A DNA stretch of 64,000 nt from an uncultured Anaerolinea sp. (GCA_964483135.1 CAZAAJ010000002.1:6511-70510), one strand, 5' to 3'; positions 38,705-58,639 are shown, counted from the first letter of the stretch. Program-made: numbers and translations. The notes: generated from the letters alone by a model not told the origin.

Positions 38705-38712
38705 GCTGCTCC

Positions 38713-41290: not shown

Positions 41291-41300
41291 GGAGATTAAC

Positions 41301-42410
41301 ATGATAAGTCTTTTTGATCTAATTATTGCTCCTGAAAGATCCTTACAAACTGCACTCGAGCGAATGACCGTAAATAAGAAGGGCCTTCTCTTTGTTTGCG
41401 ATGAGAATGAACACCTGATTGGGGTGATTTCAGATGGAGATATTCGACGAGCTCTTTTAAATAATGCTTTGTTATTATCCTCTATCAGTTCATACATGAA
41501 TTTAGATCCCATAACCACAACATCTATAGAAAGCGGAAAAGCACTTATCAATAAGACGAATCACATTGCAATACCGGTTGTAAACGATTTGGGACAAGTT
41601 ATCGCCGCTGTAATCCAGAATAAAGAAGAAATTGAGGTTATCAAAACTGAGCAATTACGTGAGACTATTACATCCGCGGACGTAATCGCTATAATTCCAG
41701 CAAGGGGAGGTTCCAAACGGATTGTTAAAAAGAATATAGCGGTTGTAAAGGGAAAACCACTTATAGGATATGCGATTGAAGTTGCAAAATTGGTTTCTTC
41801 GATTTCAGAGGTGCTAATATCAACTGACGATGAAGAAATTGCTAATATTGCACGCGTTTATGGGGCTGATGTCCCCTGGTTACGACCCGCACATTTAGCA
41901 CAAGACGATACTCCTTCAATTGATGTTGTAATTCATTCAGTAGAGTGGGCAAAGAAGCAATTTGGCTCGCAACTTCAATTTGGAGTTCTATTGGAACCTA
42001 CTGCGCCGTTAAGAACTTCAGAACAGATTTCAAAAGCAATTGAGATATTAAGGTCATCTGATGCCGATTCAGTTGTTTCAGTATCAGAAATCCCCCATGT
42101 TTTTAATCCAGAAGAAATTTTAACAATTAAAGATCAGTTTCTTATACCTTTTAATAAGAAAAGAACGATGGACAATCGCCTGCCGCGGCAGAGCCAGAAA
42201 CCTTACTACGCACAAAATGGGTTGGTGTACGCATTTCGCATAGATAGGTTGCTGGAAAAAAGAAGTCTTTATGGTAAGAAATGTTCCCCGATGATCGTCG
42301 ATTGGAGTTATTTCCTGGATATCGACAACCCATCAGATCTCATTCTTGCAGAACATAAAATTAACGTGTTAAGCAATAACCACGAAGGAGAGAAAAAATG
42401 GCCCGTATAA
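41301..42410 (+). CDS. neuA: CBS-pair domain + acylneuraminate cytidylyltransferase (CMP-NulO synthetase paralogue 3)
   Basis: ATG at 41301 with GAGGAG upstream. The N-terminal ~120 aa form a CBS pair (GVISDGDIRRAL; AIPVVNDLGQVIAAV). Then comes IIPARGGSKRIVKKN. The track start at 41199 lies inside neuC. Confidence 0.85.
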   Translation: MISLFDLIIAPERSLQTALERMTVNKKGLLFVCDENEHLIGVISDGDIRRALLNNALLLSSISSYMNLDPITTTSIESGKALINKTNHIAIPVVNDLGQVIAAVIQNKEEIEVIKTEQLRETITSADVIAIIPARGGSKRIVKKNIAVVKGKPLIGYAIEVAKLVSSISEVLISTDDEEIANIARVYGADVPWLRPAHLAQDDTPSIDVVIHSVEWAKKQFGSQLQFGVLLEPTAPLRTSEQISKAIEILRSSDADSVVSVSEIPHVFNPEEILTIKDQFLIPFNKKRTMDNRLPRQSQKPYYAQNGLVYAFRIDRLLEKRSLYGKKCSPMIVDWSYFLDIDNPSDLILAEHKINVLSNNHEGEKKWPV

Positions 42411-43426
42411 ATATTTCAAACCATTGGATTGGTGACAATGAACCTTGTTTCATTATTGCTGAAGCGTGTGACAATCATTTGGGTGATTTAGCTAAAGCAA
42501 AGGAAATGGCGTTACAGGCTAAGCTATGTGGTGCCGATGCAGTGAAATTTCAACACCATTTACCTGACGAAGAAATGCTTCGAGAAGGCGTTCCAATGTC
42601 AGCAAATTTTAATATGCCTTTGTATGAATTTCTTCAAAAATATGCGTTAACTTTAGAACAACATTATCAGTTGCTCGAATATTGTAAAAAGATAGGAATA
42701 ATCTATCTATGCACACCCTTTAGTCGAAAAGCCGCTGAAGAACTTAACAAAATGGGTTTAAGTGCCTTTAAAATTGGGTCTGGGGAATTAACTGATATCC
42801 CCACATTAAAAGTAATTGCTTCCTATGGAAAGCCTATGATACTTTCTACAGGAATGTCAGAAGTGCACGAAATTGAGGAAACACTTCAGGCAATTATTCC
42901 GATCAATGATCAAGTAATCCTAATGAATTGCACTTCAGAATATCCACCTAAGTACTCAGATATCAACCTTGGTGTAATCAAACAACTTCACGATAAGTTT
43001 AAGTTGATCGTTGGTCATTCTGATCACTCACCGGATATTTACACCTGTTTTGGAGCTGTTGCATTAGGCGCGAAACTTATAGAAAAACACCTGATTCTTG
43101 ATAGAAGGCAACCTGGTCCAGATCAGAGTGTTTCGATTGAACCTTACGAGCTGTACCAATTAACGCAAGGAATCAGGCGAATCGAAGAAGCCTTAGGAAA
43201 TAATAAAAGTATCAATGATCTCGAACGTCCGATCCGGGCATGGGCACATCGAAGTGTGGTCTCGTTGAAAGATATTCCTAAAGGTAGTGTTGTGTCGCCT
43301 GAATTAGTTTGGACAAAAAGACCAGGAACTGGCATCCCGGCCAAATTAATGGACAAGGTGATTGGCAGAATTGCAAAAAAAGATATTCCAGCAAATCATT
43401 TAATTTCCTGGGATGAATTAGAATAA
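42398..43426 (+). CDS. neuB: N-acetylneuraminate (nonulosonic acid) synthase, full length with SAF domain
   Basis: 342 aa. IIAEACDNHLGD, DAVKFQHH, STGMS and GHSDHS, plus a C-terminal SAF-like segment (RSVVSLKDIPKGSVVSPELVWTKRPGTGI). Overlaps the neuA stop by 13 nt. Confidence 0.9.
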   Translation: MARINISNHWIGDNEPCFIIAEACDNHLGDLAKAKEMALQAKLCGADAVKFQHHLPDEEMLREGVPMSANFNMPLYEFLQKYALTLEQHYQLLEYCKKIGIIYLCTPFSRKAAEELNKMGLSAFKIGSGELTDIPTLKVIASYGKPMILSTGMSEVHEIEETLQAIIPINDQVILMNCTSEYPPKYSDINLGVIKQLHDKFKLIVGHSDHSPDIYTCFGAVALGAKLIEKHLILDRRQPGPDQSVSIEPYELYQLTQGIRRIEEALGNNKSINDLERPIRAWAHRSVVSLKDIPKGSVVSPELVWTKRPGTGIPAKLMDKVIGRIAKKDIPANHLISWDELE

Positions 43427-43516
43427 CAAACAAGTCTTCCAGAGTGTTGAGTTCTTCTTATCATCGAATAAAAATAGTCTCTCACGGCTTTCTAACCTCA
43501 ATTCGGATATAAACTA

Positions 43517-44944
43517 TTAATTAAGAAGAGACAATAATAATTCTGCGGTTCTCTTGGTCGCCTCACCGTTCAAAAAAGTCAATTCCTGTTCTGCAAATTT
43601 CAATCGATTTTCACTATGAAGGTCGGGGTTTTGTAAGTAACAATCAAGTGTTTTTATCAACTCTTCAACCGTGAACACATTTACAGCTGCATTCGCTTTT
43701 ACTACACGTTTTGCAGTTGGTAAATCAGGAACGTCATGTAAAGGCATCCAAAAGTTTTCAGCCCAACCTTCTGTGGTATCAATACAACAACTAATAATAG
43801 GGCGATTCTTAATCGCCGCCTCCAATACCATGGTTGAGTAAATAGTAACAATAACATCGCTATATGCTAGCATCGAGGCTTTTTCTGGGAAATCTTCACC
43901 GGAATACCTTGGCACACCTCCACCGACGGCTTTCGGCGCAACTACATGTACATCAGGACAGGTTTTCGCTAGTTCCATAATTCGACGACACTCATCCTGA
44001 TAGTGTTTTTGTGATTTGAAATGGTTTGGATGTAATCGAATTAATAGTTGCGCAGGTTTATTTAGTTTCTTTTCCTTAATCAAATCAACGATCACTTCGA
44101 TATTATGATAATTCGGTGAAATACTAAGCGCTGTGGAAATATACGTGATTAGCTTTTTCCCAGGGTCCAAATCATGTTCAAGATAATATTCCTCCCGCGG
44201 GAGCAGCCAGGTATTGTTAATATAGCCATCATAAAGAGGCATACCGCCAATTTTTATTTTCTCTATTGGCCAATCCAATCCTGAAGATAATTCATTTACA
44301 TGAATCTGTGACCATACAATGGCATAATCGACATCGGCTCCGAGAATACCATGAGAAACCGGGTTATCCCAACCAATAACTGTCATAAGTGATGTGATTC
44401 CATTTTTTTTAGCCTCCCGTAAAAAATACCGGTCCAGGCGCCATCCGGAAGTGGGAGAAATAACCAGGTCGGGGTGGTACTTTTCAAAAACATCGGAGAA
44501 AAAATCAGTGGTAAACAATTTATTTTGAATTTTCCGGAATAGTTTTCTGGCCAAATGAGAATGCCGAAGTACCCAAATGAATGGACGCATAGAAAAGAGC
44601 AACAACTTCCAACGACCTTTTGCCTCAAACTCCTTCCTTTTCCTGTGAATATCAACATAAGACAATGGAATTGCACTAGACATACTCGACCCACGTAAAT
44701 ACTCGAAAATCTCCTGAGTCCTCGCATGATGAGTCAACCGATAATGATTTGTTAAGTCCTCCCTTGAAGATATAAAGGAGATATTCTTAAACTGGCTATA
44801 TTCTTTCTCCAATAGATTTACTAATTCGGATTGGACTAAGAAAATTATTTGAATCCCATTTTTAGTTAATATCCTGGCTAGGTCTGTGTGTAAATAATAA
44901 CCGAGCATTAAACCATGATCTGAATAGACTAATATTGTTTTCAA
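43517..44944 (-). CDS. GT-B-like protein (TagF/Capsule_synth-like), possible ulosonic-acid or glycerophosphate transferase
   Basis: 475 aa, low-GC. IRLHPNHF and IYSTMVLEAAIKNRPII parallel the motifs of the 538-aa and 570-aa paralogues. Family is uncertain. Confidence 0.4.
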   Translation of the reverse strand: MKTILVYSDHGLMLGYYLHTDLARILTKNGIQIIFLVQSELVNLLEKEYSQFKNISFISSREDLTNHYRLTHHARTQEIFEYLRGSSMSSAIPLSYVDIHRKRKEFEAKGRWKLLLFSMRPFIWVLRHSHLARKLFRKIQNKLFTTDFFSDVFEKYHPDLVISPTSGWRLDRYFLREAKKNGITSLMTVIGWDNPVSHGILGADVDYAIVWSQIHVNELSSGLDWPIEKIKIGGMPLYDGYINNTWLLPREEYYLEHDLDPGKKLITYISTALSISPNYHNIEVIVDLIKEKKLNKPAQLLIRLHPNHFKSQKHYQDECRRIMELAKTCPDVHVVAPKAVGGGVPRYSGEDFPEKASMLAYSDVIVTIYSTMVLEAAIKNRPIISCCIDTTEGWAENFWMPLHDVPDLPTAKRVVKANAAVNVFTVEELIKTLDCYLQNPDLHSENRLKFAEQELTFLNGEATKRTAELLLSLLN

Positions 44945-44971
44945 TTCTTTTCCTTTTGGGCGGTTTTATGG

Positions 44972-45961
44972 TTAATTATTGTACCAATGAAAGATTTGAT
45001 TATAAACTTTCATCAAAAAACCTTTTATTAAGTAGGAATCTAAAATTTTCCTAAATAAATACTTCCAGCCATGATTCGTTGGTTTACTTTTTACACTGAA
45101 TTTATTCGGCACTTTATTACTCATGTTCATTGCAAAAGGTTCCGGAACCATTAAACGTAAGAATCCTGCCTTGTCCATTAACTCATCTAATTGAAGCACC
45201 TGCCCCATAGGTCGATCCATTTTAAAAGGTAAGAACTTAGATATGATATCCTTTCGAGTGGCAAATTGCCAATGAGAAGCTCCCACTTGTGCTGTTACAC
45301 CCTTATAAGTTAACCTAATATCATTGGTTGTTTCATATCTTTGGCGAATTTCAGTTTCGGGAACACCTAAGCTCAAATTAAATTCAAGGAAAGTATGCCA
45401 AGGAATAAATTGCCCTGTCTTTACTGTAACCTCTGGATTATTTGTCGCCCATTTCAAGGTGCTTGCATATAAATTTCCCCGAGTTCGAAATGGTCTTGCA
45501 GTAACCATCCCCGTGGACGGATAGGTTTCAAGAATTTCCATCGTTCGCTCAAGCCATCCGGAGTGAAAAAGCACATCGCTATCTGAATAAACAATAATTT
45601 CACCAGGAGCACTCGTAAAGATCAAATTCCAAGCACCTCCTTTTCCTAAATTCTTTTTAGAAAGAAATAAATACTGGATCTTCTCATTTCGATGCTGCAT
45701 TAACAACCAATCTTGAACCTCTTTACAAGAGCCATTATCGAAAACCATAAGGTCGACAGGGATTTGTGTGTTTTTCTTTATGGAGTCAAGATTGATTTTT
45801 AATACTTCTAAAGTCTCAGAATAGAAACCACTCAAGAAAGGAATGAAGTTTAAAACGCAAACAGTAATACGTTCTGGGGTAGTTATAGAAGCGAGGGATT
45901 CTACTGGGTTTTGATAATTTTTCATGTCATTATTTGTTTTTGTAACAATGCTTTTTCTCAT
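44972..45961 (-). CDS. Glycosyltransferase family 2
   Basis: Start placed at the ATG at 45961 (MRKSIV), clear of the upstream gene stop at 45987; 45925 is also possible. GT-A signature VFDNGSCKEV...YSDSDVLF. Low-GC. Confidence 0.72.
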   Translation of the reverse strand: MRKSIVTKTNNDMKNYQNPVESLASITTPERITVCVLNFIPFLSGFYSETLEVLKINLDSIKKNTQIPVDLMVFDNGSCKEVQDWLLMQHRNEKIQYLFLSKKNLGKGGAWNLIFTSAPGEIIVYSDSDVLFHSGWLERTMEILETYPSTGMVTARPFRTRGNLYASTLKWATNNPEVTVKTGQFIPWHTFLEFNLSLGVPETEIRQRYETTNDIRLTYKGVTAQVGASHWQFATRKDIISKFLPFKMDRPMGQVLQLDELMDKAGFLRLMVPEPFAMNMSNKVPNKFSVKSKPTNHGWKYLFRKILDSYLIKGFLMKVYNQIFHWYNN

Positions 45962-45986
45962 AGTGAATTTATAGGAAATATCAATT

Positions 45987-46907
45987 CTAAAGGTTACCTT
46001 TTGTAAACGCTTTACGTAATTTCGAATACACCTGCTTAGGATGCAACAATAAAAAGAAAATCTCTGCAAGTTTTAACGAATGCATTTTGATCATTGGGAA
46101 GATTTCCAATTCGCGAATAAATCTTCGTCCGGTGAGCGGCTTTTTACTGATACCCCGCGGTGAAAGGTAGTAATTGGCATCAGGTAACCGGAAGTTGGTA
46201 CGATTGCCCCCCGCCAGTCGGATATTTTCATCGGTTTCCGGCAGACGATAATGTGGTTTTCCCTCCGGCAGGTGGCTGTAATCATGGTCCTGGTGAATGA
46301 CCTGGATTAAACCCGTGGCATCAATGGTCGTCCAACCGTGCTGCCGTGATTCGTAGATCATCCAATTATCCCAGCCGGCACGCCCGATGGCAAAATCCGG
46401 GATATGTTCAAAACAGTCCCTCGAGTAGATGAAATAATCGCTGCCCATGGGTTTATGCAGCCTGCCGCGGGAGGCACAATCCTGGCGTAACCTTTCCTGC
46501 CAGCCATCCGAAAAAGCCAACTCTTCCCGTACATCCAAATCCCAGCGCTGCCCGACCAGCAAAAAGCGTGGAGCCAGTGCCATTACGCGTTTCGCCTGGG
46601 TTACAAAATCCGGCAGCAGTAGGATATCCGCGTTCACGTAGGCCAGCAGCGGCGAATCATTGAATTCTCGGGCAGTATGAAAAAGCGAACTGATCAAGGG
46701 GGTTCCGCTGGCATTCTTTTTTATCGCAGAAATGTGCTTAACCCCCAATTTTGCTGAGTTCTCAGCGAGTCCCTCCTCATCGCCCAGAACCAGGATCTCC
46801 ACTTCATCCCCTAGCGCGATCCACGAGCGGATGGCATTACGCTGGATCACGGCGATATGCGGATTCGTGAATGGTTTGGGAGCAGTGAAGAGGGTGAGGA
46901 TTTTCAT
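45987..46907 (-). CDS. Hypothetical protein, GT-A-like glycosyltransferase suspected
   Basis: 306 aa. MKILTLFTAPKPF... with YVNADILLLPDF as a DxD-like segment. The last ~30-40 codons lie in low-GC DNA at the island junction. Confidence 0.45.
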   Translation of the reverse strand: MKILTLFTAPKPFTNPHIAVIQRNAIRSWIALGDEVEILVLGDEEGLAENSAKLGVKHISAIKKNASGTPLISSLFHTAREFNDSPLLAYVNADILLLPDFVTQAKRVMALAPRFLLVGQRWDLDVREELAFSDGWQERLRQDCASRGRLHKPMGSDYFIYSRDCFEHIPDFAIGRAGWDNWMIYESRQHGWTTIDATGLIQVIHQDHDYSHLPEGKPHYRLPETDENIRLAGGNRTNFRLPDANYYLSPRGISKKPLTGRRFIRELEIFPMIKMHSLKLAEIFFLLLHPKQVYSKLRKAFTKGNL

Positions 46908-47662
46908 TTCTTTTCCACGTCATACATGGTCTTATGAGCCACAGAAGAATTAATCTTCGCAAGGGAAGGGTCCTGGAGGAAGAGCGCTAATACTTCGCGC
47001 CATGAAAAGTCATTGCGGTTTTGCATGCGTTTAAGAACTTCCCTCAACAATGCCAGGTCTTCAGGGGTATCCAGTGTCCAGCGCAAGCTGCCGTAATCGA
47101 CATCGTTTTGTAATTGTTTTACTTTGAATCGGCCCGGCACTTCATACAAATAAGGCATCACATGTTCGCGGTCATGTTTGGCGGTAGCGTTCTTCCACGC
47201 GGTTTCCAGCGCTTTGAAAGTACAGACTTCCACATCCAGCCCGATTGGATAGGTGCGCCTAAAGGGGGGAGGCAGCCGGTTGCAGGAAAAATCTACAGGG
47301 GAGTCGAGTAAGACGTTAACCACCTGGTCAATCAACTCCGGGTCGATCAGCGGGCAATCGCCTGTTAGACGCACCACAAAATCCGCTTTGTATTCTGATG
47401 CGCATTGAAAATAACGATCAAGCACATCCGGCAGGCTGCCACGAAAGACTGGCGTTCCCAATTTGCGGCATAATACAACAATTGGCTCATCTGAAGGATC
47501 GGTTGTGGTGGCCACAACTGTCTCCGTCACAGTTTCAGAGCGCTTCACCCGCTCGATCATGCGCTCCAGCACCGGGTAGCCGCCCAGGTCCAGCAGCACT
47601 TTGCCGGGCAACCGCGTGGAACTCATGCGTGCCTGGATGATGGCAATAACGCGCTTCTTCAT
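46904..47662 (-). CDS. SpsF/PseF-type cytidylyltransferase (CMP-NulO synthetase paralogue 4, COG1861-like)
   Basis: Start at the ATG at 47662 (MKKRVIAIIQARMSSTRLPGKVL), in an ATGA overlap with the upstream stop. The RLTGDCPLIDP motif is typical of SpsF/FlmC/PseF-like enzymes. Confidence 0.8.
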   Translation of the reverse strand: MKKRVIAIIQARMSSTRLPGKVLLDLGGYPVLERMIERVKRSETVTETVVATTTDPSDEPIVVLCRKLGTPVFRGSLPDVLDRYFQCASEYKADFVVRLTGDCPLIDPELIDQVVNVLLDSPVDFSCNRLPPPFRRTYPIGLDVEVCTFKALETAWKNATAKHDREHVMPYLYEVPGRFKVKQLQNDVDYGSLRWTLDTPEDLALLREVLKRMQNRNDFSWREVLALFLQDPSLAKINSSVAHKTMYDVEKK

Positions 47663-48756
47663 GCCCTTTCCCTTCGCAACTCTATCGCCTTCTCGTAAGC
47701 CTGCAGCAATACGGGAAAATTCTTTGACCAATCTGCCCGTTCTTCAGCCAATACCCGGTTTCGCTGCCGCATCTCATTAACCTCAGGGGAATCCTTATCA
47801 AACTTAACCATGAATCCCGCCAGATCCTCAGCGTTCCCGGTCGTAAACCGCCATCCGTTTACACCTTGTTCAATCCACTCAGCATTGCCAGGAATATTGC
47901 TCACCAATGCCGGAAGACCACACGCCAGTGCTTCCATCAGGGAGACTGAAGCCCCATCGCTGTGGGATCCGCTGATATACAGATCAGCGCTTCGGTAAAC
48001 ATCAGGGAGATTCTCTAAGGCTGCAACTCCGCCAAAATGGACTTTATCTGACAGCCCCGCTTCAGCAACCAACTTCCGCAATAACCCTTCCCGTGACCCT
48101 TTGCCAAAGACCTTCAGGCGCAGGTCAGGGCGTTTTTCGGCAGCGATGGTGAATGCCTGAATAATGCAATCCACGTCATAGAGTTTCTCGAATGAACGCA
48201 TGGAGAGCAGCACTGTGTTTTCCTGCCACCCAAGTTCATCCTGCAAATTTCGAGATCCGGCAGGGGAAAAATGAAACAGGTCTACGCCCCAGGGAAATTG
48301 AAAATACGGACCTTTAAAGCCATACTTTCGGGCTTTTTCCAGGATACACTTCGAGTCGCCCACCAGCACATCCGTTTGAGAGAGGGTAAAGCGAGTGATG
48401 CGCCGGGTCTGAAAGCTGCGCTCAGCCTCCAGCATCAGGTCAGAGCCCCACGACATGGTCACCAACGGGTGTATGAGATTCACGGCAGCCAGGTATGCTG
48501 GTCCCTGCACCGGACCGGCATGAACGACATCGGGCTTTATTGATTCGATCACCTTTTTTAACTTTGGAGCTTGCAACTGAATTATGAACAAACTTTTTTT
48601 AACCGGTTCCCAATTTACGGGAGTAACTTTCACTGGCCACCCGGTAACAATTCCCTGCAAGGACAAAATAAACACTTCGTGCGGTGTTTGTGCAAGTGAC
48701 GCTGCAAATCGCAGGTCGTGAGAAGTTTGTCCGTTGGTCAAGTACAGGATGCGCAT
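47659..48756 (-). CDS. Glycosyltransferase family 4 (GT-B, retaining type)
   Basis: 365 aa. The C-terminal EX7E-like region is SHSDGASVSLMEALACGLPALVSNIPGNAEWIEQGVNG. Confidence 0.85.
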   Translation of the reverse strand: MRILYLTNGQTSHDLRFAASLAQTPHEVFILSLQGIVTGWPVKVTPVNWEPVKKSLFIIQLQAPKLKKVIESIKPDVVHAGPVQGPAYLAAVNLIHPLVTMSWGSDLMLEAERSFQTRRITRFTLSQTDVLVGDSKCILEKARKYGFKGPYFQFPWGVDLFHFSPAGSRNLQDELGWQENTVLLSMRSFEKLYDVDCIIQAFTIAAEKRPDLRLKVFGKGSREGLLRKLVAEAGLSDKVHFGGVAALENLPDVYRSADLYISGSHSDGASVSLMEALACGLPALVSNIPGNAEWIEQGVNGWRFTTGNAEDLAGFMVKFDKDSPEVNEMRQRNRVLAEERADWSKNFPVLLQAYEKAIELRRERA

Positions 48757-48768
48757 CGTATTTGCTGC

Positions 48769-49839
48769 TTATTCGCCCAGGTCAGCCCAGCGAATTTCCT
48801 TCCCAAATGGAAGATCTTTGAGAGCGTGGGTGCCAATGACCTGGTTGATCTCTGCCGGTTTGACGGCACCGGCGGTTGCCGGTCTCAACACTTCCAGCAT
48901 CTCGCGGGTGATCTTCTCCCCTGCTTTGATATCCCGCGCCGCGCGCACACAGCGCCGTTGCACGATCGAAGTATCCTTCTCATTAGCAGTGATGAATTTA
49001 TCCGCTGAACCCAATGCTTTTTCAAGTTCACGGGTGCGGTCCACCATCTCACGCCAGGTAAGCGGGGTCATACTGAAGGGGTGATCCGGTCCGGTACGGG
49101 TGGTGTCATCGGTGAAATGTTTTTCGATCACCCTCGCGCCCAGCGCTATCGCGCCGAGCACGGTGGCATGTCCGTGTGTGTGGTCAGACAACCCCAATTT
49201 TACCTGCGGGAACATGGTATGGTAGGTGTTCAATACCCGCAAATTAATATTCTCAAAATTGACCGGACTTGCTGTGTAATTGGTGTTGCACTGCAGCAGC
49301 ACCACCTGCGGATTGATCGCCAGCAGGGTGTGCACTGCGCGCTGTACATCGCCAATTTCCGCTGCACCGGAAGAAACGATCACCGGCTTGCCCTTACGGG
49401 CAATGTACTCCAGCATTTCCAGCCAGTCCACATCACCTGAGCCGATCTTGTGTGCCGGCACAAACGGATCGAGGTAGTCCACCGCTTCAAAATCATAAGG
49501 AGAGGAGAAATAGTCAATGCCCACCCGGTCGCATTCTTCTTTCAACACCGGAGTCCAATCAAAGGGGATGGAGGCATCGGAGTAAACCTGGAATACAGAT
49601 TTTTTCCAGGTCGCCTGGTGCGAGACCTGACCTTTCATGGCAGTGAAACCATAATCGGAAACAATCTTTGCCGCCCTGAAGTTCTGGAACTTGGCAGCGT
49701 CCGCGCCGGCTTCTTTTGCCAAGCGGATCAGTAATTTGGCGCGTTCCAGGTCACCATCATGATTGGCGGAAATATCCGCAATGAAATAGGTTGGGTGATT
49801 TTCGCCGATCAAATGCTTGCCGATTTTTACTTCCATCAA
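48769..49839 (-). CDS. NeuB-family nonulosonic acid synthase (PseI/LegI-like), full length with SAF domain
   Basis: 356 aa. FIADISANHDGD, DAAKFQNF, SSGAA and GLSDHT, plus C-terminal SAF (RCVRAARDIKAGEKITREMLEVLRP). Confidence 0.88.
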   Translation of the reverse strand: MMEVKIGKHLIGENHPTYFIADISANHDGDLERAKLLIRLAKEAGADAAKFQNFRAAKIVSDYGFTAMKGQVSHQATWKKSVFQVYSDASIPFDWTPVLKEECDRVGIDYFSSPYDFEAVDYLDPFVPAHKIGSGDVDWLEMLEYIARKGKPVIVSSGAAEIGDVQRAVHTLLAINPQVVLLQCNTNYTASPVNFENINLRVLNTYHTMFPQVKLGLSDHTHGHATVLGAIALGARVIEKHFTDDTTRTGPDHPFSMTPLTWREMVDRTRELEKALGSADKFITANEKDTSIVQRRCVRAARDIKAGEKITREMLEVLRPATAGAVKPAEINQVIGTHALKDLPFGKEIRWADLGE

Positions 49840-49856
49840 GTCCTCCTTACCTAAAA

Positions 49857-50774
49857 CTAGGCGAGTGAACGGATCATTTGCGGAAAGCCGTGCCGGTACT
49901 GGCTGTGGAATTTTTCCAATCCCTGCGCGAATGCCGGCAGCGGATGACCCAGAGCTTGAGCCAGTTTGCCGGTTGAAAGCGTCAGGTTGGGTGAACGCGC
50001 GGCAGTCAATCCGCCATCTGAAACAGAAGCAGTGTGAACCAGTGAATCATCAAAACCAAACTGACGAGCGATCGCCGCGCCAAATTGATACTTCGACATG
50101 CTTTCTGGTCCAACCATGTGATATAGACCCGAAAGGTCTTTTTCGACAGATTCCACCAGGGTTACAGCCAGGTCGAGCACCATCATCGGGCAGAACAGGA
50201 TATCCGTAAAGCCCTTAACCACTTTACCCTCAGAAAGGTTGTTAACAAAGAATTCCGCCAGGCTGCGGGTACCGCTGAGGCTCCAGCCGTAAAAGTTCAC
50301 TCTTGCCACCAGCGCTTGCGGGTTTGCGGAGAGGACTGCGAGTTCACCATCACGCTTTGTCCGGGCATAAACGCTCAAGGGATTGGGTTGATCAGTTTCT
50401 ACGTAATTCCCTTTTTGCCCGTCAAAAACTGCGTCCGTTGAAATATGGACCATTTTGATAGCATGTTTTTTCGCGACCTCTGCGATTTCACCGGGCAGGT
50501 CCGCGTTCACCCGCTGTGCATCCAATGGTCGTTTTTCGCAATCATCCACATTGGCCATGGCAGCGCAATGCAGGATAACTTCCGGCTTGATCTCCTCCAC
50601 CAGTTTCTCAATGATCCCGGTCTCTGTCAGGTCAGCCTGGTGCGTCTTGAAGTTGATCCAACTTAAAGGATTGCGGTTATCCACCCCGGTCACCTGGTGT
50701 TGGCGGCCATCCACTGCCAGGGCAAAATTTAACCCCAGCAAACCGGATGCACCAGTGACCATGAAACTGCTCAT
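49857..50774 (-). CDS. RmlD-type (dTDP-4-dehydrorhamnose reductase-like) NAD(P)-dependent sugar 4-ketoreductase
   Basis: 305 aa. VTGASGLLG, STDAVFDG and YARTK (the YxxxK catalytic motif). RmlD_sub_bind architecture. Confidence 0.8.
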   Translation of the reverse strand: MSSFMVTGASGLLGLNFALAVDGRQHQVTGVDNRNPLSWINFKTHQADLTETGIIEKLVEEIKPEVILHCAAMANVDDCEKRPLDAQRVNADLPGEIAEVAKKHAIKMVHISTDAVFDGQKGNYVETDQPNPLSVYARTKRDGELAVLSANPQALVARVNFYGWSLSGTRSLAEFFVNNLSEGKVVKGFTDILFCPMMVLDLAVTLVESVEKDLSGLYHMVGPESMSKYQFGAAIARQFGFDDSLVHTASVSDGGLTAARSPNLTLSTGKLAQALGHPLPAFAQGLEKFHSQYRHGFPQMIRSLA

Positions 50775-51778
50775 TAGAGTTTCCCTGCCAGGTAGTCAGC
50801 TTCAATGGGAGCAATGATGCTCTTGATCTGGTCAACACTCAGCCACTGGGTATTGGTGTTGGAGGCATAGCGGAAACCATCTTTGAGCAAACTGCCCCTG
50901 GCTTCCCAATCCCGTCCGAACCACAGCGTTTCTGCCGGCTGCACCACATACATATCCGGCATTTCCACGGTCTGGCGCGCTTCATCTTCAGAGATGAGCA
51001 CTTCATGCAATTTTTCGCCAGGGCGTATGCCAATGTTGTCGATCTGTGCATCTGGAGCAATTGCTTTTGCCAGGTCAAAAATCGTGCAGCTGGGAATCTT
51101 GGGGACAAACACCTCTCCGCCGTACATGTTTTCAGCGGCACGGATGACAAAACGGACCCCCTGTTCCAGGCTGATCCAAAATCGTGTCATGCGGTTATCG
51201 GTGACGGTTACCTTGCCGGTCTGGCGCTGTTTGAGGAACACGGGCACCACCGATCCACGGCTGCCAACAACATTGCCGTAACGTACACAGGCAAATCGCA
51301 CCTCGCGTCCGCCGGCATAAGCATTGGATTGAACAAAGAGTTTCTCGGCTGCCAGTTTTGTTGCCCCGTAGAGATTCACCGGGTTGACTGCTTTATCGGT
51401 GCTGAGTGCCACCACCCGGCTGACATCGGAATCAATGGCAGCATCGATGACATTGCTGCTGCCAAGGATATTGGTCTTGATAGCTTCCATGGGGTTGTAT
51501 TCACAGGCAGGCACCTGCTTGAGGGCAGCGGCGTGAATGACCACATCCACCCCATCAAAGGCGCGTTTGCAGCGCTCCTTATCGCGGACATCTCCAATGA
51601 AATAACGCAGAGACGGATGATTGTATCCAGCTGATTGCATTTCATGCTGTTTGAGCTCATCACGGCTGAAAACAATTACCTTGGAAGGATGATATTCATC
51701 CAGCATGACGCGGATGAACTTTTTTCCAAAAGATCCTGTTCCACCCGTAACCAGAACGACTTTTTTTGACCAATCCAT
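50774..51778 (-). CDS. pseB: UDP-N-acetylglucosamine 4,6-dehydratase, PseB/FlaA1 (or FnlA/WbjB/CapE) type
   Basis: 334 aa. Nearly collinear with H. pylori FlaA1 as recalled: TGGTGSFGK, SRDELKQ, IGDVRD, HAAALKQVP, STDKAVNP.NLYGATKL, VRYGNVVGSRGSVVP, RMTRFWI, GGE.FVPKIPS and IRPGEKLHE. Confidence 0.85.
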   Translation of the reverse strand: MDWSKKVVLVTGGTGSFGKKFIRVMLDEYHPSKVIVFSRDELKQHEMQSAGYNHPSLRYFIGDVRDKERCKRAFDGVDVVIHAAALKQVPACEYNPMEAIKTNILGSSNVIDAAIDSDVSRVVALSTDKAVNPVNLYGATKLAAEKLFVQSNAYAGGREVRFACVRYGNVVGSRGSVVPVFLKQRQTGKVTVTDNRMTRFWISLEQGVRFVIRAAENMYGGEVFVPKIPSCTIFDLAKAIAPDAQIDNIGIRPGEKLHEVLISEDEARQTVEMPDMYVVQPAETLWFGRDWEARGSLLKDGFRYASNTNTQWLSVDQIKSIIAPIEADYLAGKL

Positions 51779-51812
51779 GGCAACCTCATCAATAACAGAA
51801 TATTTGGTTTAC

Positions 51813-53312
51813 TTATTTACCCGTCAGGCGATTCCGCATATCACGCAGAAAATAATACATCCTGGTGTCTGTGATTTTTCTGGTAGGAAGCTTTCTATGC
51901 GGGGTGTAAGGAAACTCCGCCAGCTCCGGCCATAGATACGCTGTAATGCGCTGCTGGGCAATATGGTTGGGATAGGAGCGGTATTTAGGGTCGATCCCCA
52001 GCATGATGGTGAAGAACTTGCGGCAATTGAATAGAGTGAATTCCTGCTGCGCGAGGTTGAATACGGCATACCCCAGGTCGTACCAGTTACCAACCTCGAT
52101 CTCCCACGAAAGCAAGTCCAGCAGTTTGACACCGTATTTCTCCGCATAGGGTTTGGCTTCCTCTAGCCAGGTACGCAGGTTGTTTACCACCAGCGGTGCA
52201 TCGCCTAATGCCATCAGGGCAACAATATCCTTCAAGGTTACCTTTGGTGGATGAATCCCTACCCCAAAGTAGCGGCAGCGCATGATCTCGGATATAGTTC
52301 CCTTCAGGATGACCTGATCAGATGGAATATTTTTGATCCTGCCAGCCACGATATCCACCCAGTCGACTTTCAATCCTTTCACATTGCGCTGGTAAAGCTC
52401 ACGGATGTCCTCATCTGCGGGCAACCGACAGTCATACACTGTATGTTTGAAGCCAATCTTCTTTGCCATTTGCACCGGTACGAACACATCATCGCTGTCT
52501 TCAGTGAGATTGCGATACAGCAGTGAATAGACCGGAATATCTGTAATGAAGTCTTTGCAAGCGGAAAATACCAGGCGACTATCAAGCCCTGAGGACAGAG
52601 AAACTGCAAGGCGGAAGCGGTTATGAGCGCTGGTCAGCAGCCCTTTGAGCATTTTACCGACCACAGGGATCGAACTCTCAAAATCCTGTTTCTCCAGTTT
52701 TTGATACGGCCAGAATCGTTTCGCCTGATTCGCTTTGAAATCGAAAAGATGGTTTGGAAGGAGCTGTTTAACTTCAGCATACGGGCTGGATTCCCCCGGC
52801 CACCAGGCTTCGTGCCGTTCCTTGAACCGCGGTGAGTTGGTGTACTCAAGCGACTCTTTCGACTCAACAAAACCCAGTTGCTCAGCCAGCAGCCCGGGCT
52901 GCGTGGACATCCAAACGTGCCTGTCGGCATCCACGTGGTAGAACAGGGTCAGAGTTCCACCCGCGTCCGGGAATACCAGGTCTGCACCATGCCCGGAAAG
53001 GAAGAGCAGCCAGCGACCACCTAAAGCATCTGTTAAACGGATGAATTCATCCGCACTGACTGCTGCCAGGCATAAACGAGTTAAGATCGCCTTGTCATCG
53101 TCCTGCGGACGCTCAGGATCCAAAAGGAAACCCAGCAATATCACCGAGAATCCATTTTCATTTAGTGTGACAACATTGAGGTCCGGATGAGCAGAAAGCC
53201 ATCCCTTTCCCTCAACGCGGAAATGCTTCCAGTCCGGCAGCTCGATCTTCTTCTGCCCCAGGAAATATTGACCGCGATACAATAGCTTTTCAAAACTGGT
53301 CTTTTCTGTCAT
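51813..53312 (-). CDS. Asparagine-synthase-like / PP-loop ATP-pyrophosphatase domain protein (possible sugar amidotransferase)
   Basis: 499 aa. The central SLSSGLDSRLV resembles the SGGxDS PP-loop of AsnB / N-acetyl-sugar amidotransferases. The N-terminal half lacks an obvious catalytic Cys2. Confidence 0.5.
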   Translation of the reverse strand: MTEKTSFEKLLYRGQYFLGQKKIELPDWKHFRVEGKGWLSAHPDLNVVTLNENGFSVILLGFLLDPERPQDDDKAILTRLCLAAVSADEFIRLTDALGGRWLLFLSGHGADLVFPDAGGTLTLFYHVDADRHVWMSTQPGLLAEQLGFVESKESLEYTNSPRFKERHEAWWPGESSPYAEVKQLLPNHLFDFKANQAKRFWPYQKLEKQDFESSIPVVGKMLKGLLTSAHNRFRLAVSLSSGLDSRLVFSACKDFITDIPVYSLLYRNLTEDSDDVFVPVQMAKKIGFKHTVYDCRLPADEDIRELYQRNVKGLKVDWVDIVAGRIKNIPSDQVILKGTISEIMRCRYFGVGIHPPKVTLKDIVALMALGDAPLVVNNLRTWLEEAKPYAEKYGVKLLDLLSWEIEVGNWYDLGYAVFNLAQQEFTLFNCRKFFTIMLGIDPKYRSYPNHIAQQRITAYLWPELAEFPYTPHRKLPTRKITDTRMYYFLRDMRNRLTGK

Positions 53313-53347: not shown

Positions 53348-54997
53348 CTATTTTCCGTTTATCGTAATTTCTACAGCCTTTTTATGAATGTTCGAATGAA
53401 GGTTTGCCCAATCCAGGGGTTCCCCTACCAGGTAACGGAAGGAATTGCCATACCTGCGTTTACCTTCTTTGCTGAAAACCTGAGAGATCTTGTGATCCTC
53501 ATAATCCTGCCATAGTTTTATGTGCCACGGGAAAGGCAGCGGAAAAGTGTAAAAGAAATGATAGGCGTACTTCCACGCCAGGCTGACTTGTTCCTTGGTT
53601 AACCTGAATTGCTTTGGCTTTGCCAGCATCGTTCCCAGCAGTTTGAAATATTCCACCCAGCTGGCTGGGTCGTAGGTAAAACCGCGCTCGCGGTAATGGG
53701 TTTTGCCCGCCACAACCACTGGAAGACCTTTTAAAGCCATTTCGAGGCCAACCGTGGTGGTGTATACCAATCCAATATCAGATATGCTCATCAGGTCATA
53801 GGTGTTGACCTTCTCTTCAGGATGAATCACATGGATGTATTCAGGCAATTCAGGTAAAGTCTGCCTGACCACATCTACCATGGAACACTCGCGGGTGAGG
53901 ATCTCGCCGGGATGGATGCGTATGACCAGCTGGATATCCGGTCTGCCGATGAAATAAAGGATGGTACGGCTTACCCAGTCTGCCATCGTCTTGCTGAATA
54001 CCTGTCGGCCGAGCGTAAGGCTGTCGCCTAAAACATTGGTTGCCAGCATTACAATTGGACGGTTATCCAGTTTTAATGCCTGCCGAACGGATTCATCACC
54101 TTGCGCCGGTGTGCTCTGCCACTGCCGGGTGAAATTTTCGCTGGTTTTTGCCTGCTGGCGGCTCTCAAATAATGCCTGGATGCGACCTAATTGTTCCTTG
54201 GTCAGTTTGGTATCTTTCCAGGCAGCCCACATGTTGGTAGTATCCTGCCGCATGATTTCTGAGTTTTGTCCCAGCCAGAAAGCTTCCTTCTGGTCACTGA
54301 ACTCATAGGTCATCACCGGGATCTTCAGGAATCTGGCAATGCGGTAGACTATTCCGAATTCGAGAATGGTCCCATTTGGAACTACTACCACGTCCGGTTT
54401 GTTGGTTCGCAGCCAATCCAATACCGATTGTGCGGCTTCCAGGTTGCGTTTGTACCGGAATTGATAAGTAGGCCATTCTGATTCAACTTCTTCAATCTGA
54501 AGAGTATATTGAGTATCGAACGTAGTCACTTCTTTGACCGCGTCCATGATTGCTTTGGGAAGAACAGTATAGACTGCCCGGTTTGAAAGGAAAGAGACTG
54601 TTTTGATCAACGGAGAGGCTGCCTGCATCACCTTTTGGGTGTACAGGTTTTGGCGTCGAATATCAAACTTATCCTGGTCCTGGTGCCAATCAGCATAGGG
54701 ATAATAACCAAGCGTCACTTCATTATTATCAGCAGCCAACCCGATGGCGGTTACAGTTGCCTGTTCTATCCAATAGTGCATGGCCGCGAAAACAAATACC
54801 TTCTTACCGGTGAATTTTGCGGTCTTCTTTGCTGCCTTTGCCTCTGTCACAAGTTCAGGCAATACTTCCTGCAGCCTCTTTAGTGCGAAACGGGTATTGA
54901 CCCCATTGGCATTTCGCCTGACCAGCCAGTAAAGTTCTGCGGTCAGAGGGATATTACCAAGGAGTTTCTTGAACGTACTTGATTTTTCATCAGCCAT
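53348..54997 (-). CDS. GT-B-like protein, capsule-biosynthesis (KpsC/KpsS)-like paralogue
   Basis: Start at the ATG at 54997 (MADEKSST), overlapping the wzt stop by 1 nt. The motifs IRIHPGEI and VYTTTVGLEMALKGLPVV are shared with 34126..35742. Confidence 0.5.
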   Translation of the reverse strand: MADEKSSTFKKLLGNIPLTAELYWLVRRNANGVNTRFALKRLQEVLPELVTEAKAAKKTAKFTGKKVFVFAAMHYWIEQATVTAIGLAADNNEVTLGYYPYADWHQDQDKFDIRRQNLYTQKVMQAASPLIKTVSFLSNRAVYTVLPKAIMDAVKEVTTFDTQYTLQIEEVESEWPTYQFRYKRNLEAAQSVLDWLRTNKPDVVVVPNGTILEFGIVYRIARFLKIPVMTYEFSDQKEAFWLGQNSEIMRQDTTNMWAAWKDTKLTKEQLGRIQALFESRQQAKTSENFTRQWQSTPAQGDESVRQALKLDNRPIVMLATNVLGDSLTLGRQVFSKTMADWVSRTILYFIGRPDIQLVIRIHPGEILTRECSMVDVVRQTLPELPEYIHVIHPEEKVNTYDLMSISDIGLVYTTTVGLEMALKGLPVVVAGKTHYRERGFTYDPASWVEYFKLLGTMLAKPKQFRLTKEQVSLAWKYAYHFFYTFPLPFPWHIKLWQDYEDHKISQVFSKEGKRRYGNSFRYLVGEPLDWANLHSNIHKKAVEITINGK

Positions 54998-56259
54998 TAT
55001 TTTTCCTCGATCTGCCACTCCAGGCGGGGTCGTGTGACCCCCTGGCGGCTTTCTGCCCACTGCATGCCCGGGGCACCGGCAGGATTAACATTAAAAACTA
55101 CTGCGTTTGCATCATGAAAATAGCGTTTCACTCGAAAGACGCTGGCGTTCATACCGATCACAAACCGACCTTCATTCAACATATCCGCAGGCAGCCGCAC
55201 CCGGCTGATGTACCGCCCCGCCTTGCGCATGGTCAGGCGATTGAACTGCTCCGGATCGTCTATATCGAAAGAGGTAAAAACGAATTCCCCCCGCATCGAC
55301 ATCAGGTAGATGCCAACCCGCAAGCCGGTTATCGGCGCGTCGAGTTCGTATTCCACTTCGATATACATCGGGTCGATCGACCGGATCGAATCCGTCACCT
55401 GCTTATGATGATTGAGGACCCGCATCGCCACCGGCCGGAAAGGTTTTGCTCCCGCTTCGATCTCGGAAGGTTTCCAGCGGCGCTCTCCGCCTTTCTCGTA
55501 ATCATGAGAAAGGTAGTAATCAACCGCTTCCTGGCTGGGGGCGCGCATGAGCATTTTACCGTGTTCCAGGATGATACATTCTTTCGTCAGGCGGGTAACC
55601 GCCGACATGTTGTGCGATACAAACAATACCGTTCGTCCTTCACCAGCCACGTCGCTCATTTTTCCAAGGCATTTCTTCTGGAATTCGGCATCGCCCACCG
55701 CGAGGACCTCATCAACGATGAGGATTTCCGGTTCGAGGTGAGCTGAAACTGCGAAAGCCAGGCGCATATACATGCCACTGGAATAACGCTTTACCGGTGT
55801 ATCAATGAATTGACCAATATCCGAGAATGCCACGATCTCATCGAATTTCTTCTGGATCTCGCTCTTCTTCATCCCGAGGATGGCGCCATTGAGGTACACA
55901 TTCTCCCGCCCGGTCAATTCCGGGTGGAATCCGGTACCTACTTCCAGCAGCGAACCCACTCGTCCGCGGATTTCAGCTTTGCCTTCAGTGGGTTCCACAA
56001 CTCGCGAAAGGATCTTGAGCAAAGTGGACTTGCCAGCTCCGTTCTTGCCAATCACCCCCAGAACCATGCCTTTTTCCACATCAAAGCTGATATCTCGAAG
56101 CGCCCAAAAGGTTTCACTGCCGGTGGGATTGAACAGGGCCTTGATCGGACTTCGCACGACCTCAACAATCTTTTCACGTAAGGTGGTGTATTTGTTCACC
56201 TCAGAAAAGATGCGGTATTGTTTGCCGATTCCAGCGACTGTAATTGCGTAATTGCTCAT
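54997..56259 (-). CDS. wzt: Polysaccharide/teichoic-acid ABC exporter ATP-binding protein (Wzt/TagH type) with C-terminal extension
   Basis: 420 aa. Walker A GKNGAGKST, signature YSSGMYMRL and Walker B ILIVDEVL. An extra C-terminal domain of about 170 aa follows the NBD. Confidence 0.9.
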   Translation of the reverse strand: MSNYAITVAGIGKQYRIFSEVNKYTTLREKIVEVVRSPIKALFNPTGSETFWALRDISFDVEKGMVLGVIGKNGAGKSTLLKILSRVVEPTEGKAEIRGRVGSLLEVGTGFHPELTGRENVYLNGAILGMKKSEIQKKFDEIVAFSDIGQFIDTPVKRYSSGMYMRLAFAVSAHLEPEILIVDEVLAVGDAEFQKKCLGKMSDVAGEGRTVLFVSHNMSAVTRLTKECIILEHGKMLMRAPSQEAVDYYLSHDYEKGGERRWKPSEIEAGAKPFRPVAMRVLNHHKQVTDSIRSIDPMYIEVEYELDAPITGLRVGIYLMSMRGEFVFTSFDIDDPEQFNRLTMRKAGRYISRVRLPADMLNEGRFVIGMNASVFRVKRYFHDANAVVFNVNPAGAPGMQWAESRQGVTRPRLEWQIEEK

Positions 56260-56266: not shown

Positions 56267-57121
56267 CTATATCATGTCCGCAAAAATTCGTTCCATGCGG
56301 CGGAAGAAATAAAGACCACTAATGAATATCATGAGAGAGATCGTACCTGAAATTGCCAGGCTGGAGAAAGAGATGGTTTCCGGCTGACCCAGCAGCGCCC
56401 AGCGGAACCCAGTTACGACCCCTGCCATCGGGTTGATCGAATACAACCACTGCCACTTTTCCGGGATCAAGGTGGCAGAATAAACCACCGGTGAAACAAA
56501 CTTCCAGATCTCGGTGATAAATGGCAGCATATAGTTCACATCCCGATACATCACCAGGAGTGCCGAGAACCACAATCCCACCCCTATGGCAGTGATCATT
56601 GCCAGCAGGATAAAGACCGGCAGCCACAATGTGTTAATGGTGGGCGTGATCTGGTAGTAGATCATCATGCCAATAAGAATGGTGAAGGCGATTAGAAAAT
56701 CTACCAGGTTGGCGAACACAGAAGACAACGGCACGATGATGCGTGGGAAGTAGATCTTGGAGACCATTCCACCGCTTTGCAGCATGGAGCGGGCAGAAAC
56801 CTCGAGGGCTGCCGCGAAGAAACCCCAGGGCAGCAATCCTGTGTAAGAGAAGATGGGATAAGGGATACCATCAGATGGAATCTTGGCCAACTGACCAAAG
56901 AAAATGGTGAAAACCACCATGTTCATAAAAGGTTTGAGAAGCGCCCACAGGACTCCCAGTACAGATTGCTTGTAACGCACTTTGAGATCGCGCCAGGTGA
57001 GGAAATAGACTAGCTCGCGATAATGCCAGAGGTCCTTCAAGTTCAAAGGAACCCAGCCTTTCACGGGTTTGATCGTCACCAATTCAGGCAGCCGGTCGCC
57101 TTCAAGCGCTTTTTGTTTCAT
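56267..57121 (-). CDS. wzm: ABC-2 type polysaccharide exporter permease (Wzm/TagG type)
   Basis: 284 aa, six TM segments, with an N-terminal YRELVYFLTWRDLKVRYKQSVLG motif characteristic of Wzm/TagG/KpsM. Confidence 0.88.
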   Translation of the reverse strand: MKQKALEGDRLPELVTIKPVKGWVPLNLKDLWHYRELVYFLTWRDLKVRYKQSVLGVLWALLKPFMNMVVFTIFFGQLAKIPSDGIPYPIFSYTGLLPWGFFAAALEVSARSMLQSGGMVSKIYFPRIIVPLSSVFANLVDFLIAFTILIGMMIYYQITPTINTLWLPVFILLAMITAIGVGLWFSALLVMYRDVNYMLPFITEIWKFVSPVVYSATLIPEKWQWLYSINPMAGVVTGFRWALLGQPETISFSSLAISGTISLMIFISGLYFFRRMERIFADMI

Positions 57122-58557
<1,436 letters not shown>

Positions 58558-58568
58558 GCGTCTCCAAT

Positions 58569-58610: not shown

Positions 58611-58613
58611 GGG

Positions 58614-58639
58614 AAAAAACAAAATCGCCAAAAGGCGAT
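58614..58639 (-). terminator. Rho-independent terminator after the Ig-like/zinc-ribbon gene
   Basis: Minus strand ATCGCC TTTT GGCGAT followed by TTTGTTTTTT, 47 nt after the stop at 58686. Confidence 0.65.

Follow-up and report, generated by a model that had tools for sequence, protein, structure and literature searches.

A conserved Anaerolineae gene cassette with a ketoreductase instead of amination genes, predicted to produce a mono-amino 9-deoxy nonulosonic acid

Nonulosonic acids (NulOs) are usually grouped into the neuraminic acid/Kdn (Neu/Kdn), legionaminic acid (Leg) and pseudaminic acid (Pse) routes. Here, we describe a gene cassette built around an RmlD-fold reductase and a NeuB-family synthase, encoded in a 64-kb stretch of DNA from an uncultured Anaerolinea sp. 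(GCA_964483135.1 CAZAAJ010000002.1:6511-70510; the window, with positions counted from its first letter), and compare it with the closest described systems. The CMP-Pse pathway of Campylobacter and Helicobacter has in common with the cassette a PseB equivalog, an L-configured 4-keto-6-deoxy intermediate, a NeuB-family synthase acting with phosphoenolpyruvate (PEP), a CTP_transf_3 cytidylyltransferase and the operon arrangement. PseB-class enzymes yield UDP-4-keto-6-deoxy-L-AltNAc, alias L-IdoNAc. Unlike in the CMP-Pse pathway, PseC and PseH are replaced here by the ketoreductase, which would leave a hydroxyl rather than an NHAc group at C7; a GT4-fold gene is present and PseG is not; neither the synthase nor the cytidylyltransferase reaches its cut-off (PseI and PseF, respectively); and where PseI has Phe129, the synthase has Gly.

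A second group of systems, FnlA/B/C, CapE/F/G, WbjB/C/D and WbvB/R/D, likewise combines a UDP-GlcNAc dehydratase with a C4 reductase and has a linked GT4 gene, such as wbuB. The cassette differs in its PseB-class dehydratase, in the absence of both a cupin domain and a 2-epimerase, and in the NulO synthase and cytidylyltransferase embedded within it. RmlD enzymes, which act in dTDP-L-rhamnose synthesis, reduce 4-keto-6-deoxy-L-hexose nucleotides; they share with our reductase the fold, the catalytic Thr/Tyr/Lys and the type of substrate. However, the reductase described here lies below the rmlD cut-off and is partnered with a UDP-GlcNAc dehydratase, and RmlA, RmlB and RmlC were not found in the window in Pfam and NCBIfam scans.

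The closest match in predicted chemistry is a sugar of Fusobacterium nucleatum. According to passages of PMC13014188 and PMC7371886 referring to Vinogradov et al. (Carbohydr Res 2017), the O-antigen of strain ATCC 25586 contains 5-acetimidoylamino-3,5,9-trideoxy-(L-glycero-L-)gluco-non-2-ulosonic acid ('fusaminic acid') in the repeat [->4-beta-Non5Am-4-alpha-L-6dAltNAc3PCho-3-beta-D-QuiNAc-], where Non5Am adjoins L-6dAltNAc (2-acetamido-2,6-dideoxy-L-altrose). Fusaminic acid is a mono-amino, 9-deoxy, 7-hydroxy NulO, the class predicted here, and L-6dAltNAc is exactly the predicted product of PseB plus reductase. In the literature searched, part of it as titles, abstracts or passages, this type of NulO is seen so far only in F. 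nucleatum; neither its gene set nor any gene-level description of fusaminic acid or UDP-6-deoxy-L-AltNAc biosynthesis, or of NulOs in Chloroflexi, was found there. A preliminary description of this DNA had placed the product in a class outside the known bacterial NulOs, which is wrong in light of the 2017 report on ATCC 25586 as relayed in those passages.

The predicted route and its genes

Gene content and cassette conservation make it probable that the operon encodes a shortened, amine-free Pse-like route to CMP-5-acetamido-3,5,9-trideoxy-nonulosonic acid; of the two options raised in the preliminary description, the one proposing a mono-amino 9-deoxy NulO is the best-supported reading. The PseB-class enzyme would convert UDP-GlcNAc to UDP-2-acetamido-2,6-dideoxy-beta-L-arabino-hex-4-ulose, and the reductase would reduce C4, where PseC and PseH would install an N-acetylated amine, to give UDP-6-deoxy-L-AltNAc or its C4 epimer. 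The candidate for removing UDP is the GT4-fold protein encoded between synthase and cytidylyltransferase, as we infer from its place in the operon. The synthase, which we call NeuB3, would join the free 6-deoxy-HexNAc and PEP into 5-acetamido-3,5,9-trideoxy-non-2-ulosonic acid (C11H19NO8), with a hydroxyl at C7, and the SpsF-type enzyme would convert the acid to its CMP-sugar. A Capsule_synth/BFO_1060-like protein probably moves the sugar onto a glycan exported by Wzm/Wzt, and tailoring may be carried out by an AsnB-fold PP-loop protein here and by a methyltransferase in most relatives. The proposed route is thus Pse-like but has a ketoreductase substituting for amination, and it probably leads to a sugar class known already from one organism.

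Gene calls are based on the table of open reading frames (ORFs) of the window together with Pfam and NCBIfam profile scans. The genes form an unbroken minus-strand series that begins near 58.7 kb and ends at 46.0 kb:

58075-58668, minus: MarR-type regulator (HTH_24/MarR), first gene of the conserved locus
57122-58078, minus: Fcl-like epimerase/reductase of the short-chain dehydrogenase/reductase (SDR) type; 308 bits to the GDP-L-fucose synthase model, below its cut-off of 500
56267-57121, minus: Wzm (ABC2_membrane), forming with Wzt an ABC exporter of glycan
54997-56259, minus: Wzt (ABC_tran); Wzt_C match below threshold, 26.9 bits against a cut-off of 30.4
53348-54997, minus: Capsule_synth/BFO_1060-like (CapS-like) protein; the listed ORF runs to a GTG at 55060, the likely start being the ATG at 54997
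51813-53312, minus: PP-loop protein of AsnB/beta-lactam-synthetase fold, accessory; weak Asn_synthase match, 24 bits
50774-51778, minus: PseB-class UDP-GlcNAc 4,6-dehydratase, C5-inverting; TIGR03589, 499 bits
49857-50774, minus: RmlD-fold reductase of 305 amino acids (aa), the defining gene of the cassette; RmlD_sub_bind, 199 bits
48769-49839, minus: NeuB-family synthase (NeuB3) with NeuB and SAF domains
47659-48756, minus: GT4-fold protein; Glycos_transf_1, 105 bits, and Glyco_trans_4_2
46904-47662, minus: SpsF-type cytidylyltransferase; CTP_transf_3, 118 bits; the listed ORF runs to a TTG at 47731
45987-46907, minus: 306-aa protein (unk306) with no Pfam or NCBIfam match

The six genes at 46904-53312 stand at the coordinates and on the strand reported previously, and that gene list proved correct, since the ORF table and the profile assignments agree. 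The core genes are translationally coupled: the PseB stop and the reductase start share 1 nt, as had been stated; for the cytidylyltransferase, the ATG at 47662 is the probable start, which gives a 252-aa protein matching the length of its relatives and overlaps the GT4 stop as ATGA; and, by coordinates, an ATGA overlap also joins the cytidylyltransferase stop to the start of the 306-aa gene.

Profile scores place the dehydratase in the PseB class rather than with FnlA/CapE: it passes the PseB equivalog (499 bits, cut-off 408) and fails FnlA (TIGR04130, 263 bits, cut-off 730). Its sequence contains STDKA...YGATK, keeping the Tyr of YxxxK, where CapE has Met. The reductase consists of one RmlD domain, lacks the cupin domain of CapF/FnlB in Pfam and scores 188 bits against the rmlD equivalog, under the cut-off of 224; GxxGxxG, S112/T113, Y136 and K140 are invariant in an alignment of 29 diverse homologues. 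From the fold, the intact catalytic residues and the operon position, we infer that it reduces UDP-4-keto-6-deoxy-L-AltNAc to UDP-6-deoxy-L-AltNAc or to the C4 epimer (L-IdoNAc).

NeuB3 passes neither equivalog (NeuB, 282 bits with a cut-off of 400; PseI, 268 with 340), and its best matches among solved structures are PseI 8h2c (163 bits), SpsE (162) and NeuB (154). Nor does it group with the sialic acid (NeuCBA) systems, scoring below the NeuB cut-off and having no NeuC in its cassette. We aligned it with 73 Anaerolineae orthologues, the synthases of two loci from other lineages (L006 and L008, see below), the two other NeuB proteins of the window, Neisseria meningitidis NeuB, Campylobacter jejuni PseI and Bacillus subtilis SpsE. 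The catalytic-site motifs KFQ, SDHT, EKHFT, GPD and LRP are conserved. The signature KxGSG[E/D] places Gly at the position of PseI Phe129 in all 73 orthologues; this position is Gly in Neu and Leg synthases and has been linked in the literature to the configuration of substrate C2. Equally invariant in the 73 is QCNTNYT, where NeuB has HCTNIYP and PseI KCTSAYP. Because of these invariant motifs and the Gly, NeuB3 is, by sequence, a distinct synthase subfamily, neither PseI nor NeuB, consistent with another substrate or another facial selectivity.

Between synthase and cytidylyltransferase lies the GT4-fold protein, whose nearest relatives in a profile search of solved structures are BshA-type UDP-GlcNAc GT4s. 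A relationship to PseG is not backed: the best 60 of the 90 matches are ordinary GT4s, and PseG is not among them. Because no PseG stands among the matches listed, it is gene position that argues for a hydrolase role, that is, the fixed place of the gene and its co-occurrence with the reductase-NeuB pair across lineages; and since the route calls for five reactions and the conserved genes also number five, we propose that this protein frees the sugar from UDP. It is thus a candidate UDP-6-deoxy-HexNAc hydrolase or, alternatively, a transferase of that sugar. The cytidylyltransferase has a KdsB-like N-terminus and only 24 bits to PseF (cut-off 206).

The genes that would introduce an amine are absent from the window. 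A Pfam scan of every ORF of at least 150 aa, the intergenic gaps that were checked lying below about 460 bp, revealed neither a DegT/DnrJ/EryC1 protein nor an acetyltransferase of the GNAT or hexapeptide kind in the 64 kb, where a PseG-type gene and a WbuX/PseA-family amidotransferase were not found either; the reported absence of a PseC/DegT aminotransferase and a PseH-like acetyltransferase thus holds for the 64 kb. A class I/II 'aminotransferase' at 22928-24112 was considered as a hidden PseC and rejected, being a BioF/Kbl-family acyltransferase (570 bits).

Conservation within and beyond Anaerolineae

Nearest to the reductase come a homologue of 99% identity, encoded on a Logan contig of 4 kb, and one of 85% identity, and homologues at 65-90% identity belong, where named, to metagenome-assembled genomes (MAGs) of Chloroflexi/Anaerolineaceae. 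Five neighbourhoods (L001-L005) display the same gene order, with a MarR-type gene seen at the same place in L001-L003 and L005. When one genome for each species was scanned with the reductase alignment, 80 loci emerged. Of these, 79 have Anaerolineae/Chloroflexota titles, and the isolates Levilinea saccharolytica KIBI-1 and Pelolinea submarina MO-CFX1 are among them. The one Chitinophagales-titled MAG may be a binning error: its contig is 3.3 kb long, and its reductase identity, 56%, lies within the range of the Anaerolineae loci listed around it.

Stop-to-stop ORFs of the 80 loci were searched with the window proteins and with DegT, GNAT and WbuX seeds from other loci. Strict adjacency counts were set aside, because adjacency is too tight for stop-to-stop ORFs and undercounts; we report instead presence in the 49 loci whose 10-kb flanks are complete. 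Reductase, NeuB3 and GT4 occur in 49/49, PseB and the cytidylyltransferase in 46/49 each, the 306-aa gene, the CapS-like gene, Wzm and Wzt in 47/49 each, and the Fcl-like gene in 45/49, as against 5/49 for NeuC. The seed search detected DegT, WbuX or GNAT within 10 kb in none of the 80 loci (0/49 of those with full flanks), and clustering of the unassigned ORFs revealed no further conserved gene inside the core from PseB to the cytidylyltransferase. The order common to the 80 species genomes is Fcl-like, Wzm, Wzt, CapS, methyltransferase or AsnB-like, PseB, reductase, NeuB3, GT4, cytidylyltransferase and the 306-aa gene. The cassette is therefore conserved in about 80 Anaerolineae species and, because the same order recurs in these genomes, is not a chance arrangement. 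Three loci (L025, L068 and L044) keep reductase, NeuB3 and GT4, with PseB and the cytidylyltransferase not nearby; in the first two, a pair of ORFs with no Pfam match separates reductase and synthase, and L044 has GNAT and aminoglycoside-acetyltransferase-like genes as neighbours.

Distant reductase homologues (35-45% identity) take the cassette beyond Anaerolineae. Two loci of a low-GC metagenomic lineage (L006 and L007) have PseB (531 bits), reductase, NeuB, GT4 and cytidylyltransferase ordered as in the window; nearby are genes for a GFO/IDH/MocA oxidoreductase, DegT, GNAT and an N-acetyl-sugar amidotransferase, WbuX (323 bits, cut-off 203). The DegT protein of L007 reaches 238 bits against the PseC cut-off of 423, and its gene adjoins that of the oxidoreductase, a pairing that suggests a 3-amino-sugar route, as in WbpB/WbpE-type systems. 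An Omnitrophota MAG (L008) encodes PseB (490 bits), reductase, NeuB, cytidylyltransferase, HisH/HisF-like genes and WbuX (328 bits, cut-off 203), with neither DegT nor GT4 on its 10.5-kb contig. A Proteobacteria MAG (L089) has reductase, NeuB and GT4 followed by an Asn_synthase-like protein, and a 1.45-Mb contig (L091) has Wzm, Wzt, a methyltransferase, PseB, reductase, NeuB and GT4. The reductase-NeuB-GT4 triad is thus present in three unrelated lineages, and the reductase-NeuB pair without GT4 in a fourth. Because this adjacency recurs in unrelated lineages, reductase and synthase are a recurrent functional pair, with GT4 usually along and acetamidino-forming enzymes repeatedly adjacent. Two further arrangements accompany the triad. 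In L091, a single 594-aa gene (14167-15951) beside it fuses a NeuB domain to CTP_transf_3, and in two unrelated lineages (L006, 6962-9994; L089, 643-5000) it is found together with three genes, encoding an aldo/keto reductase, an Aminotran_3 protein and an SpsF-type cytidylyltransferase.

The product class of the cassette probably matches fusaminic acid, a link drawn at the level of predicted chemistry rather than of genes. The WbuX genes of L007 and L008 are consistent with a 5-acetimidoyl NulO and match the acetimidoyl group of fusaminic acid, whereas the window and all 80 Anaerolineae loci are without WbuX. By our reading of the configurational prefixes, the 'gluco' form of fusaminic acid differs from Pse at C4, a centre set by the synthase; gluco or manno at C4 is not predictable here. 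The named distant matches to the reductase belong to Omnitrophota, Proteobacteria, Pacearchaeota and Sulfotelmatobacter, the remainder being metagenomic. Fusobacterium was absent among ten representatives looked up from the 150 best of the reductase family at 50% identity (nine of the ten being the most low-GC-like in composition) and from a homologue search with a low-GC reductase member as query.

We put forward more tentatively, as a possibility falling short of probable, that the cassette is the route to fusaminic-type acids, operates with an RmlD-fold 4-ketoreductase dedicated to it, NeuB3 as a new synthase subfamily and a GT4-fold protein taken over as UDP-sugar hydrolase, and yields a product near-universal in the Wzm/Wzt-exported envelope glycan of Anaerolineae.

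Alternative explanations

Several observations weigh against the amine-free route to a NulO. The GT4-fold protein resembles an ordinary retaining transferase by sequence and is missing from the 10.5-kb Omnitrophota contig, and the known kinds of UDP-sugar hydrolase, PseG and NeuC, were not found in the cassette. A reductase homologue in Pacearchaeota (L090) has no NeuB neighbour and stands among glycosyltransferases. Gly replaces Phe129, the residue said to suit the L-altro configuration at C2, which leaves the substrate geometry unsettled. The Pen-type 5,6-dehydratase carries the same motif as PseB-class enzymes, so that the two are inseparable by motif. Three of the 49 full-flank relatives are without PseB and the cytidylyltransferase nearby, and the absence of amination genes is known for 64 kb of this genome only.

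Some of these points would also fit a scheme, unlikely in our view and corresponding to the second option of the preliminary description, in which PseB and the reductase make UDP-6-deoxy-L-AltNAc purely as a donor, GT4 is its transferase and NeuB3 draws on an aldose from elsewhere. Next to fnlABC, wbuB encodes the transferase for L-FucNAc, a model for such a GT4. Here too the GT4 looks normal, its nearest solved relatives use UDP-GlcNAc, the cassette is without a hydrolase and the Pacearchaeota homologue sits among glycosyltransferases; moreover, in the passages on F. nucleatum 25586 cited above, L-6dAltNAc is itself a polymer residue. Yet reductase and synthase adjoin in five lineages, an aldose supplier for NeuB3 is absent from most Anaerolineae loci (NeuC, 5/49), and the sugar-pathway genes of the Omnitrophota contig are only PseB, reductase, NeuB and cytidylyltransferase, beside tailoring enzymes. 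Donor supply is compatible with the amine-free NulO route, and both may hold together. The preliminary description had treated the two as alternatives; they are not exclusive, as the O-antigen of F. nucleatum contains the reduced 6-deoxy-HexNAc as a residue and presumably as the NulO precursor.

Less likely still, and rather improbable overall, is ordinary pseudaminic acid synthesis with PseC, PseH and PseG encoded outside the window, in which case the RmlD-like protein would either partner a Pen-type dehydratase, as Pal does, or epimerise some other intermediate. Pen and Pal form a two-enzyme route to the same 4-keto sugar in Bacillus thuringiensis, Pen has the PseB motif, and our survey of this genome covers 64 kb. 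Furthermore, PseAc2/LegAc2-type NulOs predominate among those detected in the extracellular polymeric substances of anaerobic granular sludge, and such sludges are rich in Anaerolineae. Nevertheless, the 80 relatives have neither DegT nor GNAT within 10 kb, NeuB3 fails the PseI cut-off and lacks the PseI Phe, the cytidylyltransferase fails the PseF cut-off, and even the DegT protein of L007 scores far below the PseC cut-off and lies beside a GFO/IDH/MocA gene.

The analogy drawn within that second option, an L-FucNAc/L-RhaNAc/L-QuiNAc-type branch as in WbjB/WbjC, CapE/CapF, FnlA/FnlB or WbvB/WbvR, follows the same two-step logic of dehydratase then reductase on UDP-GlcNAc, and WbvR is RmlD-like, but the analogy is very improbable and fails at the family level, because the dehydratase is PseB-class (263 bits against the FnlA cut-off of 730, yet passing PseB, with the YxxxK Tyr kept) and the 305-aa reductase is without the cupin/C3-epimerase domain of CapF/FnlB, and an FnlC/CapG-type 2-epimerase is not in the conserved cassette.

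Taken together, the observation made in the preliminary description is confirmed and its interpretation is in part supported.

Tailoring, transfer and neighbouring modules

Upstream of PseB, the window encodes a PP-loop protein for which PseA-like amidation had been suggested, an idea that was not borne out. The protein has no TIGR03573 match and no BLASTP similarity to bona fide WbuX, and its fold resembles AsnB, CarA and beta-lactam synthetase, so that an identity as PseA/WbuX was rejected. Its family comprises 54 clusters of Anaerolineae type, all without a name other than 'hypothetical protein'. A single-sequence search of the PDB gave no match, and a profile search only a weak PP-loop match. 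An AlphaFold (AF2) model built from 36 sequences (mean pLDDT 92.4) has as its top Foldseek matches, over the full length, CarA (carbapenam synthetase), beta-lactam synthetase, AsnB and TsnB9 (E 4e-15 to 1e-9, TM about 0.55). The two-domain fold and the PP-loop, which reads SLSSGLDSR, are thus held in common with these enzymes, although identity to the top 23 fold matches is low (11-17%). The N-terminus, MTEKTS, lacks the Cys nucleophile of glutamine-dependent AsnB, as do CarA and beta-lactam synthetase. Judging from the model, ATP-dependent carboxylate activation followed by amide formation is the most likely chemistry, and PseA-style acetamidino formation is less likely.

In 63/80 loci, a class-I methyltransferase gene lies between PseB and the CapS-like gene, and in 7/80 an AsnB-like protein is encoded there; the PP-loop protein is therefore an exchangeable accessory. 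Methyltransferase and AsnB-fold protein look like alternatives to each other in tailoring or chain capping, and the Wzt near them has a weak Wzt_C match. The Asn_synthase-like protein of the Proteobacteria MAG (L089, 13165-15087; 640 aa) has a PP-loop, FMSSGFDSS, and no Cys2, and follows directly after reductase, NeuB and GT4; lacking sequence similarity to the window protein, it is a second, independent recruitment of this fold beside the triad.

The window contains three NeuB and four CTP_transf_3 genes, and a Capsule_synth/BFO_1060-like neighbour stands beside each NeuB (34126-35742, 43517-44944 and 53348-55060). BFO_1060 is the Tannerella forsythia homologue of Tanf_01245, a transferase of a Pse derivative. 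The neighbour of NeuB3 matches Capsule_synth with 21.6 bits and BFO_1060_trans with 32 bits (cut-off 200), and across the three proteins the BFO_1060 similarity is weak (32-47 bits). Because of this, we rate them only as candidate CMP-NulO transferases feeding a Wzm/Wzt-exported polymer. Further upstream, the Fcl-like SDR (57122-58078) might act second on the 4-keto product of PseB; a GDP-mannose dehydratase was not found in the window.

The other two NeuB genes belong to separate modules. The first is a low-GC island at 39703-46038 (36-39% GC against about 50%), which stands in place of 1.5 kb of a close relative (L003), is absent from the relatives and looks like a horizontally acquired sialic-acid-type module. 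It encodes a NeuC-equivalog hydrolysing 2-epimerase (415 bits), which is the sole Epimerase_2 gene of the window, along with a CBS-domain cytidylyltransferase, a plus-strand second NeuB with SAF, a BFO_1060-like protein and a GT2. The other, a third ulosonic-acid module at 27445-39699, is conserved in many relatives and suggests a phosphorylated Kdn-like route. It comprises a GFO/IDH/MocA oxidoreductase, an SDR, a cytidylyltransferase fused to a KdsC/Kdn-9-P-phosphatase-like HAD domain, a 289-aa NeuB without SAF, a Capsule_synth-like protein, a GT2 and another cytidylyltransferase, and further a family-less 698-aa protein, a 2-hydroxyacid dehydrogenase, an SDR and an MptE-like protein, whose domain we take to be Maf-type. 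Elsewhere in the window, at 19240-21149, a Ras/Arf-like small GTPase (180 aa), a DUF4388 protein and a family-less 179-aa protein are grouped in a manner that we would compare to an MglA/MglB-type polarity module.

Finally, a gene set for a mono-amino 9-deoxy NulO would fill a gap. F. nucleatum, from which the sugar is known, is associated with colorectal cancer, and its lipopolysaccharide binds Siglec-7. The five-gene cassette opens the enzymatic synthesis of CMP-trideoxy-NulOs, probes and antibodies, and its sequence signatures separate the route from true Pse clusters, where current annotation speaks of 'pseudaminic acid' or 'rhamnose' genes. Anaerolineae are major members of anaerobic digesters and sediments, and their cell envelope is almost unstudied. 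The cassette points to a conserved acidic surface glycan in these bacteria and, if the link to fusaminic-type acids is true, Anaerolineae would be nature's chief source of a sugar so far known from just one oral pathogen.

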